Part shown: positions 4,008-7,446 of the stretch, piece by piece
Numbering within the stretch: the stretch's first letter is position 1
Layout: the number at the start of each line of letters is the position of its first letter
Virus record (IMG/VR): IMGVR_UViG_3300043398_000057
DNA from: a virus
DNA: 64,000 nt
Reading direction: 5' to 3' (one strand)
The notes under the pieces: generated by a model
The model's input: the letters and a program-made list of their open reading frames with translations, nothing else
The model's database searches: none
Told to the model about the DNA's origin: nothing
Made by a program: the position numbers and the translations under genes

Positions 4008-4299
4008 TTTCGCGGATTATCTTGCTAGGTTCAGTGGTTCTTTGGCTGGCTTGTTGCTAAGTTGGGCCATTGCGCCATTGCCGTTCAATTTTAGACTGGT
4101 GCTGTTTATCTGCATCAGCGTTGGCATTTGTTTTGCCGGTGCGCCAATCACATTTGAACTTTTGCAAGGTATCGTGTCAACAATTCATGCAAACTTTTCC
4201 GGCTATTTCATCGCCGCTTGTTTGAACGGTATCTTCTAGGTTCCGCTGGTGATGATGATCAACAAGTTCTTGAACGATAGGTTCAAACCTAAAGAATGA
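4000..4299 (+). CDS. Small membrane protein, holin-like candidate; internal TAG 4237-4239
   Basis: Hydrophobic segments; TAG lies inside GIF*VPLVMMI; terminal TGA overlaps terminase ATG (ATGA). Confidence 0.65.
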
Positions 4300-4676
4300 A
4301 CAAAGTCGAAAAGCCCCGTCACTATAAGGGCAACACAAAACTCAAGGGGGTGAACGTCAAAAGCGTTTTCACCCCCGAACAAATTGATACGGTTGCCAAG
4401 TGTATTGCCGACCCTGTTTATTTCATCGAGAACTTTGTCAAGATTGTTCACGTTGACCAAGGCATTATCCCATTCAAGATGTGGGATTTCCAGAAAAACA
4501 TTGTTGAGTTGTACAACAACAACCGTCACGTTATTCTGAAGTAGCCTCGTCAATGTGGTAAGTGCGTTTCTGGTGATACTACAGTAAAGATTAGAAACAA
4601 GAAAACTGGCGAAATCTTGGAAATTACAGTTGAAGAATACTACAAGATGTTAAAGGCGAAAAATGACGCCAAATAA
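4296..4676 (+). CDS. gp17: Terminase large subunit N-fragment fused to split intein N-part; internal TAG 4542-4544
   Basis: KCIADPVYFIENFVKIVHVDQG then K*PRQCGK (Walker A first half), then CVSGDTTVKIR, ending at TAA 4674-4676. Confidence 0.92.
4563..4673 (+). mobile_element. Split intein N-fragment (IntN), 37 aa
   Basis: Begins with Cys1 block A (CVSGDTTV) directly after the Walker A GK; terminated by TAA. Confidence 0.9.
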
Positions 4677-5708
4677 ACCATTGTCAGTTAAAACTTGCAG
4701 AGGGTGCGATATATCTTTTAATGGATATCGTACAACATCTTACTGTTCTGCCGAATGTTCAAAGTCTGTAAAGAATAAGAAAAAGGTTCAACAGTCTCAT
4801 ATTAAATTTCATTCGGAGAATTCTTCAGAATGGGTTGAATGTAAATTGTGTGACTTTAGGTCGGCTGATTTGGGCACACATTACAAAATTCTTCATAAAC
4901 TAGAAAGCAATCACGGGTATGAAACAAAATCTCATAACATCCGAGAATCATTGACAGGAAATAAGAATCCTGCCTTTAATCATGGCGGAAAATTTTCTCC
5001 GTGGTCGAAGAAATTTGTTAAATACTCTGATGATCGAGTTTGTTCAGAATCAATTAGTAATATGATTCTAAAAAGAAATAAAACATGGGAAGAAAACAAA
5101 TCGCTACCATAGAGAGTTGATTACTATACCTCTAGGGGTATTTCCGAAGATGATGCAGTAAAGTTTATATCAGAAAGACAGAAAACTTTCAGTTTAGATA
5201 TCTGTGTTGATAAATATGGTGTTATTGAAGGCACAAAACGTTTCTATGAGAGACAAGAAAAGTGGCAACAAACACTAATGTCAAAACCTGATGAAGAGTA
5301 TCGTAGAATTTGCGAGTTGAGAGCGACAGCAAATAACCAATCTGTATCACTACAAGAAAAGGAATTGGTGATCGAACTACAAAAACTGTTCCCATCTTTG
5401 GAATCTCAGTTCATAATTCGTAAAGAACGTGGGTGGTACAATTTTGATATCAAAGTTGGTGATAGGCTGATCGAATACAACGGTGATTATTGGCACGCAA
5501 ATCCTTAGATTTATGACGGTTCCTGGGTTCATCCTAAAAGTGGTTTGACCGCAAAAGAATAGTGGAAGAGAGAGATTCTACAAAATATGAATTTGCAAAG
5601 AATCAAGGGTTTACGGTTTTAGTTGTGTGGGAATCAGATTTCAAGCAAAATAAAGAACTGCTAATCTCAAAATGTGTTAAATTTTAGGAACAAGATGAAT
5701 CTGTCTGA
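4663..5708 (+). mobile_element. Free-standing homing endonuclease (Vsr/DUF559-like PD-(D/E)xK) between the intein halves; 4 TAGs and an apparent frameshift near 5570
   Basis: N-terminal Cys motifs; FDIKVGDRLIEYNGDYWHANP; C-terminal GFTVLVVWESDF lies in a shifted frame; AT-rich; TAG at 5110, 5506, 5560, 5685. Confidence 0.8.
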
Positions 5709-6060
5709 TACCGTTTCCAGAAAATTCGTAGATTCTATTGATATCGATGAATGGGAAATCCTAACTGATACTGGTTGGGAAGATATCACACATATTCACA
5801 AAACTGTTGAATATGAAGTTTATTCTTTGGTACTCGATACCGGCGAGACTTTAAAGTGTGCCGATGATCATATCGTTTTTGATGATGGTCTAAATGAAGT
5901 TTTTGTCAAAAACTAGAACCCCGGTGATAAAGTTGTGACAGAAAATAGTGTTTCTCTGGTCAAGACTGTGTGCAATCTTGGCTACACCGAAAATATGTTT
6001 GACGTGACGGTTGGGTCTAAAAATCATCGGTATTACACCAACGGAATTCTGAGTCACAAC
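5695..6060 (+). mobile_element. Split intein C-fragment (IntC), 122 aa
   Basis: Block B LKCADDHIV, block F MFDVTV..HRYYTNG, terminal SHN followed by +1 Thr. Confidence 0.9.
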
Positions 6061-7446
6061 ACCCAAACAACAGCAGCATTCATTTTGCACTATGTGTTGT
6101 TCAACAAGAACAAAACTGTTGCCATTTTGGCTAACAAGGGTGCAACCGCTAGAGAAATCATCTCTCGTATCAAACAATCGTTTGAAGAATTGCCGACATG
6201 GATGCAAATCGGGGTGAAAGAGTGGAACAAGGGTTCCATCGAATTTGAAAACGGTTCGTCAGTTATCGCCGCCGCAACATCAGGTTCCGCAATTCGTGGT
6301 AAGTCAATTTCTCTGTTGTACCTTGACGAATTCGCGTTCTTGCACCCCAATATGGCAATGGAATTCTTCGAGTCGGTTTATCCTACCATTTCTTCTGGTA
6401 AGGAAACCAAGATTCTGATCAGTTCTACGCCCAAGGGGTTCAACCATTTCTACAAAATGTATAACGATGCAATTCAGGGCAAATCTGAATTCACCGGTTA
6501 CGAAATCAAGTGGAATGACATTCCCGGTCGTGATGACGCTTGGAAAGAAAAGACCATTTCAACGGTGGGTATGCAGTCTTGGTTGCAAGAATACTGTGGT
6601 GAGTTCCAAGGTAGTTCTTACACACTGGTTTCTGGTACGAAAATTGGGTCACTTGCATCGAAAGACCCAATTTTCAAAGACGGTAACTTCCGGGTTTACG
6701 AAAAGCCAATCGAAAAGAGAAACTATGTTATCACGATTGATACCAGTCGTGGTCAACATCATGACTTCCATGCGTTTTCTGTCATTGACATTACTGCACT
6801 TCCGTACAAACAAGTTGCAACATTCAAGGACAATGCACTGTCACCCCTTGAGTATCCAACGCTGATTTATAACGTTGCGAAAATGTACAACAGTGCATAT
6901 TGTCTGATCGAAATCAACGATAACGGGCAACAAGTTGCTGACGCATTGTTCTACGATTTTGAATATGAGAACATCTACTTCACGAAAAATGAAAAGGTCA
7001 CTGAGGGACTTGGGTATCCGGGTGTTCGCACAACAAAGAAGGTGAAATCGATTGGTTGTTCGGTCATGAAAGACTTGATCGAAAAGGATATGTTGGAAAT
7101 CAACGATCTTTCAACCATCAATGAACTTGCTGGGTTCTCTAAGAAGGGCGCAAGCTACGCCGCTGAAGATACATCGGTCAATGATGACCTGTGCACCACA
7201 TTGTTCCTGTTTGGCTGGCTTACAAAGGAACCAATTTTCTCAGAACTAAATAACGTCAACATCAGAAAGAAAATTTCTGAACAGTATGAGGAATATGTTA
7301 CCGAGAATATGACGCCATTTGGTATCATCGATAACGGTATTGACGCATACTCTTTGAGTTCTGATACACCTGTGCCTAAATACGGGTCTGAGGAAATGGA
7401 ATTCCTTCATTCTCTTTTGGGTATACAACCTACTTCTATGGACTAA
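5695..7446 (+). CDS. gp17: Split intein C-part fused to terminase large subunit C-fragment; internal TAG 5914-5916
   Basis: IntC then TQTTAAFILH, AILANKGATAREI, AATSGSAIRG, Walker B LLYLDEFAF, STPKGFNHFY, nuclease NDDL. Confidence 0.95.

Follow-up and report, generated by a model that had tools for sequence, protein, structure and literature searches.

A phage large terminase gene fractured within its Walker A motif by a predicted split intein and a probably decaying endonuclease gene, with TAG codons in all three reading frames

In the genome of the freshwater, T4-like phage behind IMG/VR virus record IMGVR_UViG_3300043398_000057, of which we analyzed one stretch of 64,000 nucleotides (hereafter the window), the gene for the large terminase subunit (TerL) lies in two pieces on the plus strand between positions 4296 and 7446. 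We propose that a class 1 mini-intein, together with a free-standing, putatively Vsr-like homing endonuclease gene, has been inserted precisely between the Lys and the Thr of the Walker A motif, and that the two halves of the intein (IntN and IntC) are trans-spliced to give TerL; our probability for this reading is about 0.85. The layout is real, but it is of a kind known since 2009. Its interest lies in an empty allele found in another sample, in the state of the endonuclease gene, and in the in-frame TAG codons present in all three of its reading frames.

When TAG is read through, the region contains three open reading frames (ORFs). ORF 1 starts at 4296 in frame 0 and ORF 3 at ATG 5695 in frame 1, with an AGGA 5 nucleotides 5' of the ATG; because the two frames differ, read-through is unable to join them. 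The endonuclease gene is wedged tightly between, its ATG (4663) lying inside the end of ORF 1 in a different frame, with a 14-base overlap, and its TGA at 5706-5708 overlapping the start of IntC. The original prediction, made from the letters and translated ORFs, held that TerL is split within Walker A into two genes, and direct reading confirms every coordinate, length and junction residue that it gave; it omitted the 1-kb endonuclease ORF in the gap and the TAG in the N-extein. The features of the locus are as follows.

4296-4676, plus strand: ORF 1, TerL N-extein and IntN, 89 + 37 amino acids, then TAA at 4674-4676
4296-4562, plus strand: TerL N-extein, 89 amino acids, ending PRQCGK (Walker A through its Lys); TAG at 4542-4544 is codon 83
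4563-4676, plus strand: IntN including TAA 4674-4676; 37 amino acids at 4563-4673, with Cys1 at 4563-4565 (CVSGD...)
4663-5664, plus strand: endonuclease ORF as encoded (ORF 2); ATG 4663, 333 codons, TAA at 5662-5664
5565-5708, plus strand: C-terminal nuclease motif of the endonuclease, in the other frame; TAG at 5685-5687, TGA at 5706-5708
5567-5574, plus strand: (AG)4 run; a presumed 2-base insertion here puts the endonuclease out of frame
5695-6060, plus strand: IntC, 122 amino acids, with CADDH (block B), FDVTV (block F) and SHN (block G); TAG at 5914-5916 is codon 74
6061-7446, plus strand: TerL C-extein, 461 amino acids from Thr+1 (6061-6063, then QTT); TAA at 7444-7446, no TAG
4563-6063, plus strand: stretch absent from the empty allele, 1501 bases, with ACT in their place

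The exteins are those of a large terminase of the T4 type (gp17). The N-extein matches phrog_5989, terminase large subunit (3.8e-22), and the C-extein carries the Terminase_6N ATPase (2.3e-21) and Terminase_6C nuclease (2.6e-15) domains, with Walker A restored on joining. Alignment to three intact TerLs matches the N part to their first ~88 residues up to RQxGK and the C part resumes at the very next residue, the Ser/Thr of Walker A; the two are colinear with the intact proteins and hold no other large insert. This bears out the predicted restoration of GKT by joining the halves. The joined protein would be 550 amino acids long, and the intact homologues measure 547-562 (from coding sequences of 1689, 1644 and 1650 nucleotides). 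No second TerL, intein or endonuclease copy of this kind was found in the phage genome (144,840 bp, or 144.8 kb, with a 127-bp terminal overlap), and the phage thus needs this copy. The terminase has only distant relatives: a tblastn search of 50,697 phage records with the C-extein matched 2606 of them, every one below 60% identity, with 2458 covering at least 80% of the query. The closest, a freshwater Synechococcus phage, is 50.8% identical, and identity to the TerL of cultured Kyanoviridae-type phages is at most 51%. Close relatives were likewise missing from the viral contigs (at most 47% identity, 20 loci) and the metagenome contigs (at most 46%, 11 loci), and an exact 33-mer spanning codon 83 is absent from both collections.

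The inserted protein segments have the features of a class 1 intein. Cys1, the class 1 nucleophile, stands directly after the Walker A GK, and a block B His, a block F Asp and the C-terminal His-Asn followed by Thr+1 are present. An alignment of 40 family members shows no variation at His59, Asp103, Ser120, His121 or Asn122. IntC scores 23.5 bits with TIGR01443 (intein C-terminal region), above the cutoff of 15.6, and when compared on its own with the PDB it finds CatC (6DSL_B, 6.3e-6) as its best single-sequence match and also gp41-1 (2.6e-5). A profile of the 40-member family detects VidaL (2.6e-18), gp41-1 (6.7e-16), Spl DnaX (1.2e-11) and CatC (2.6e-11), and all 25 PDB chains retrieved at E <= 0.01 are inteins or intein-like HINT domains. 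As modeled by AlphaFold, with a mean predicted local distance difference test score (pLDDT) of 88.9, IntC has the HINT fold. Foldseek returned 50 matches to this model at E <= 0.001, of which the 38 listed are all inteins or intein-like HINT (BIL) domains; VidaL is the top match (TMq 0.74, root-mean-square deviation 1.3 Å), and gp41-1 superimposes at 1.7 Å.

The intein is naturally split: IntN ends at its own stop, IntC has its own start codon, and the two lie in different frames, on all of which the contigs of two sequencing runs agree. The position of the break can be read from a contiguous relative, L038, whose intein is modeled (pLDDT 93.8) as a full HINT domain with strands at residues 7-12 and 18-22 and a helix at 23-28. 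IntN residues 1-33 correspond to residues 1-33 of L038 ungapped, and IntC residues 6-122 to its residues 37-154 (tblastn), which places the break at residues 34-36, in the loop just after the first helix. The 37-residue IntN ends after helix alpha-1 and the 122-residue IntC holds blocks B, F and G, in keeping with the atypical layout of short IntN and long IntC that had been predicted from the letters. A split after helix alpha-1 has been termed S2 and assigned to the AceL and GOS TerL inteins, according to the part of the 2026 article consulted (PMC13014065). Three contiguous relatives (L031, L025 and P0004) carry linkers of differing length at the same split point.

The borders of the element are marked by alleles that lack it. 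Contigs of four runs were aligned to positions 4296-6200, two of them (X1 and X2) from the presumed source sample and two (X3 and X4) from other studies. The X1 and X2 Logan contigs match the full interval with 0 differences and 0 gaps, and X3 yields identical pieces at 4392-4576, across the N-extein/IntN border, and at 5802-5952, inside IntC. In X4, a 2018 river metagenome, a 393-nucleotide contig joins 4562 to 6064 via ACT, with 0 and 2 differences in its flanks. This allele is without exactly Cys1 to Asn122 and the endonuclease gene, reads GK-Thr-QTT, and retains the TAG at codon 83. A Logan protein of 98 amino acids from a 9177-nucleotide contig (P0123) is a further intein-less N-terminal TerL piece, 94% identical to the N-extein, and reads ...PRQCGKTQTT... 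(...PRQCGKTQTTAAFI). At 35.8%, the GC content of 4563-6060 is below that of the exteins (42-43%) and of the window as a whole (43%). Taken together, the empty allele, P0123 and the low GC content fix the borders of the element and indicate that its presence is polymorphic; the natural empty allele also defines the homing target.

Several results weigh against the proposed reading. The intein profile search that the original prediction had suggested as a check came out divided, since Pfam Intein_splicing (PF14890) reaches 21.4 bits and falls below its cutoff of 35.8, in contrast to TIGR01443. IntN alone finds no intein in the PDB, only chance matches to WD repeats. The block B Thr is replaced by Ala in IntC; the aligned position is Ala in VidaL and Ser in gp41-1, so these inteins also do without the Thr. 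The frame of the endonuclease is broken, which makes homing by this copy doubtful, and the contig that carries the empty allele is metagenomic, with a depth of ~4. Trans-splicing itself is predicted from the conservation of the catalytic residues and from TerL being an essential gene present only once.

The altered block B and an adjoining endonuclease that is probably already decaying could also indicate that the halves associate without splicing, or that the intein is dead, in which case TerL would have to function from non-covalently bound parts, unless the phage itself is defective. We consider this improbable. The catalytic Cys1, His59, Asp103, His121, Asn122 and Thr+1 are all kept, and are invariant or nearly so in the 40 relatives; the break lies inside the P-loop, where an unspliced insert of 159 amino acids would part the Lys from the Thr; both ORFs are open except for TAG; and the phage stands at a depth of ~24 in its sample. 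A further alternative is that the insert is a group I intron which houses the endonuclease gene and is spliced out of the RNA, given that Vsr-like endonucleases occur also in group I introns (Dassa et al. 2009, PMC2677866). An Rfam scan of 3500-8000 returned nothing at E up to 1, and this reading is made very improbable too by borders that coincide to the codon with the Cys1 and Asn-Thr+1 of a well-folded HINT domain and by the conservation of the flanking parts of the insert as protein across relatives. Just as hard to credit is that the intein is in truth contiguous and only looks split through an error of assembly or sequencing. The endonuclease frame break does sit in a dinucleotide repeat, where errors are conceivable, but the contigs of X1 and X2 agree with the window at every base of 4296-6200, albeit both from the presumed source sample, the pieces from X3 come from another study, and 29 of 33 related loci repeat the pattern of an IntN stop, a separate IntC start and relative frames that vary.

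Under trans-splicing, the phage would make two products, TerL(1-89)-IntN(37) and IntC(122)-TerL(461), and its own tRNA-Leu(CUA) would insert Leu at the TAG codons, number 83 in the former product and number 74 in the latter. The 37-residue IntN would dock on the nearly complete IntC and finish the HINT fold. A thioester would then form at Cys1, Thr+1 would accept the N-extein, Asn122 would cyclize, and an O-to-N shift would complete a 550-residue TerL with its P-loop intact. The endonuclease would formerly have driven homing into empty alleles. By its position in the intein loop after helix alpha-1, its gene has cut both the intein and the terminase gene into two ORFs.

Several weak likenesses bear on the type of this endonuclease. 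ORF 2 matches phrog_22677 (6.9e-5) and has a CxxC/C2H2-like N-terminal region, and homologues of 342-468 amino acids occupy the same position between the intein halves of relatives. Searched alone against the PDB it finds nothing meaningful. The family profile aligns with the core of the Vsr structures (1ODG, 1VSR and 1CW0) at E 0.7-0.9, which is not significant alone, and with a C2H2 zinc finger at E 0.087. Among 16 aligned members, 9 match PF18741 (best 2.7e-5), 2 match DUF559 (6e-6) and 5 match C2H2, weak hits that lie below curated cutoffs where shown; the C-terminal motif frame of the window gives similarly weak matches to DUF559 (0.026) and MTES_1575 (0.083). Atlas neighbors of the endonuclease are viral clusters with DUF559, MTES_1575, Vsr or NUMOD3, which serves as a lead only. 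These likenesses would fit a free-standing homing endonuclease of the Vsr-like type, for which the gene is a candidate.

The gene is no longer in one piece. Its last conserved motif (...VLVVWESDF...KCVKF-TAG-...) is encoded in the other frame, at 5565-5708, while the corresponding pieces share one frame in all 12 of the related loci where both were matched. Relatives have W-x-x-D-x-x-K across the junction, and the window fits this pattern only if two bases of (AG)4 are skipped, from which we infer a 2-base insertion at 5567-5574. Contigs of both runs from the presumed source sample contain the frame break, and contigs of other samples do not span it. The gene is probably decaying in this genome after the frame shift. 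A programmed frameshift was rejected, as (AG)4 offers no slippery heptamer or homopolymer and the relatives use one frame. The TAG codons are less likely to be the nonsense mutations of a pseudogene, given that the two frames hold four TAG and, apart from the frame shift, no TAA or TGA. In the runs of the source sample, low-depth contigs of 151 nucleotides match the nuclease motif region only (5449-5505), with 3-5 differences, and then diverge; these are probably endonuclease copies from other phages in the same water.

The meaning of TAG was examined at six sites, two in TerL and the intein and four in the endonuclease, and at the tRNA. The window itself contains no tRNA; six phage tRNAs lie elsewhere in the genome, and the genome has a tRNA of 85 nucleotides with a CUA anticodon and a backbone close to that of the phage tRNA-Leu(CAA). 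At the IntC position, Leu is found in 29 of 33 distinct relatives and, by eye, in all 11 fetched proteins. Opposite TerL codon 83, five of the six nearest N-half proteins carry Leu and one carries Ile, and 19 more distant loci are mixed (Ile 6, Leu 3, Thr 3, Gln 3, and others). Comparative evidence of this sort supports Leu, rather than Gln, as the reading of both TerL/intein TAGs. In the endonuclease, TAGs lie in frame at 5110, 5506 and 5560, in the out-of-frame tail at 5620 and in the continuing frame at 5685. The column at 5685 is aliphatic among relatives (Leu 8, Ile 5, Val 1), that at 5560 mostly Ile, that at 5506 mostly Lys and that at 5110 mixed, a pattern compatible with Leu. The share of TAG among Leu-type codons is 4 of 25 (16%) for the endonuclease, 1 of 12 for the intein and 1 of 36 (3%) for the exteins.

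Read in the standard code, all three ORFs are broken, and an essential terminase would seem absent or fragmented unless TAG is taken as Leu; the prediction that the TAG at 5914-5916 inside IntC would defeat standard-code annotation thus holds. P0123 has a sense Leu codon at the window's TAG, and its ORF ends at the window's TTG-Leu (6085-6087), where a TAG presumably follows. The comparison suggests reciprocal TTG/TAG swaps between close relatives. A small hydrophobic ORF upstream of TerL (within 4000-4299) would end in the standard code at TAG 4237-4239. If this TAG is read through, 19 further codons lead to a TGA that overlaps the TerL ATG (ATGA, 4296-4299), a typical coupled gene end and a further sign that TAG is not a stop in this phage. 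The same fractured TerL is present in L007 (428-2500, IMGVR_UViG_3300021426_000563), with a TAG in Walker A (RQ-TAG-GK) and two in IntC, one of them where relatives carry Glu or Gln (DY-TAG-ILTDTGW). The phage of L007 may therefore decode TAG differently, perhaps as Gln.

The element carries five of the TAG codons considered here (one in IntC, four in the endonuclease), and the host TerL gene one more. A splicing-competent IntC, and once the nuclease, would on this account need the phage's own tRNA-Leu(CUA). This raises the tentative idea, which we hold to be rather doubtful, that the intein and endonuclease together depend on the private code of this phage and are confined by it to a recoded lineage in which filled and empty alleles coexist. 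If so, a copy that homed into a phage with the standard code would leave IntC truncated and an essential terminase ruined, and the code would act as a barrier.

The layout is common among relatives. A search of a protein collection with the IntC region gave 471 proteins at E <= 0.001 among 555 candidates, and 11 of the 120 matches listed were examined. Ten of these start at IntC, seven of them 572-583 amino acids long, like ORF 3, and three made longer by a second, contiguous intein; the eleventh, P0004, is contiguous at this site. IMG/VR holds 60 loci with an IntC relative, and in 33 the TerL C-extein comes next. Several of the 33 are near-identical copies, so they are not 33 independent cases. 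In 29 of them an in-frame stop precedes the IntC homology by no more than 54 codons, although in 3 of these the sole upstream stop seen is TAG, which leaves the split less certain; three more are contiguous (L025, L031 and L038), and one is cut by the contig end. Among the 29 split loci, tblastn finds an IntN-like stretch directly after RQxGK in 14, with a stop following 28-43 codons on. An endonuclease homologue occupies the gap in 14 as well, and other loci have gaps of only 59-567 nucleotides. The residue at +1 is Thr in 27 of the 33 loci and Ser in 6, and it is Thr in all 11 fetched proteins. The Thr+1 singled out by the original prediction is thus present but not distinctive.

The relatives form a series, from a contiguous intein through one fractured by an endonuclease gene and one with a decaying endonuclease to a split intein without any endonuclease, and this series fits the gene-breaking model of 2009 at a non-canonical intein site. 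Other loci differ in detail. L016, L018 and L020 (2580-3305) have IntN, a 54-residue endonuclease remnant and IntC in one frame with TAG/TAA stops between them; the remnant is 46% identical to residues 148-201 of the window's endonuclease, and the state is one of advanced endonuclease loss. P0125 (139 amino acids, NCBI source, from a 1517-nucleotide contig) is a TerL N-half whose IntN ORF continues into a tail like the endonuclease C-terminus (...CKNFLKN), and from its sequence looks like a deletion remnant of the endonuclease fused to IntN. L004 (2061-2912) has an additional, intein-less TerL fragment upstream of its fractured TerL, abutting the start of the real N-half; N-extein-like sequence continues without interruption into a counterpart of the first ~140 residues of the C-extein (32-37% identity), and the fragment may be a displaced or duplicated gene end. 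The same intein family is also found in the P-loops of gp46/SbcC-like and gp41/DnaB-type helicase genes. In the gp46/SbcC-like context, L008 and L009 have two successive units of endonuclease and IntC-like sequence within ~4 kb, which indicates that the same intein and endonuclease families invade the P-loops of several phage ATPases.

Scans for expression signals added little. Sigma-70-like promoters (8 found, 10.2 expected) and terminators (2 and 2.7) were no more frequent than in shuffled sequence, the window contains no match (0) to the T4 late-promoter consensus, and RNA folds around the three ORF starts are not significant (z -1.34, -0.29 and +0.20). The endonuclease AUG falls in the loop of a weak GC hairpin of 4 bp.

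Inteins are known from the literature to favor terminases and P-loops as hot spots, and the nearest precedent for the whole locus comes from Dassa, London, Stoddard, Schueler-Furman and Pietrokovski (2009, PMC2677866), who named such genes "fractured." In their paper, a freshwater terminase locus from Lake Gatun, which resembles gp17 of myoviruses, has a 122-residue IntC. Like the locus in the window, it has its host gene broken in two with the order of the parts kept, together with split-intein halves and, between them, a free-standing endonuclease gene. The window differs in that its endonuclease is frame-broken and all three of its ORFs contain TAG codons read as Leu, a comparison made with the Lake Gatun locus by its description. 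The gene at 4663-5708 has homologues among the endonuclease ORFs that relatives carry at this point and, free-standing between the halves though now frame-broken, gives the locus the full layout described in 2009. The same source describes a Vsr-like endonuclease family in 12 loci. With these homing endonucleases and with I-Bth0305I, the window's endonuclease appears to share the C-terminal core D...E-x-N-G-D-x-W-H ... W-E-x-D and the free-standing position between the halves; it differs in its broken frame and in the N-terminal C2H2-type zinc fingers seen in 5 of 16 family members.

Among characterized inteins, the layout is that of the atypically split TerL inteins, which a 2025 review, in the part consulted, gives as AceL-TerL (25/104 amino acids, Cys1/Cys+1), GOS-TerL (37/115, Ser1/Cys+1) and Cat-TerL (30/104; PDB 6DSL). 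Like the window, these have a short IntN, a long IntC (104-115 amino acids), a phage large terminase as host and the S2 site. The likeness to AceL- and GOS-TerL put forward in the original prediction holds for this split layout. The window intein is not an allele of theirs: they have Cys+1, and GOS-TerL has Ser1, in contrast to the Cys1/Thr+1 pair within Walker A here, and IntC is 22% identical to CatC (the Cat consensus, Foldseek alignment), relative to 40-60% for relatives at the P-loop site. Judging from the +1 residues, rather than from the exteins, AceL- and GOS-TerL probably sit at another site in TerL. VidaL and gp41-1, to which the family profile is closest among solved structures, are split elsewhere: VidaL after strand beta-2 (S1) with a 16-residue IntN (PMC13014065), and gp41-1 at the site usual for split inteins, the canonical one, where IntN parts measure 88-105 amino acids (PMC2677866). 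The characterized members of the atypically split class have Cys or Ser at +1 throughout, and no characterized Thr+1 atypically split TerL intein was found in the literature searched, whose coverage excludes the primary 2014 and 2015 papers. The window thus contributes one more natural S2-type split intein (37 + 122 amino acids, Cys1/Thr+1, P-loop site) to a class used in protein labeling. The arrangement is not new, and its additions are modest: a natural empty allele, a probably decaying endonuclease, and TAG codons, read as Leu, inside a mobile element.

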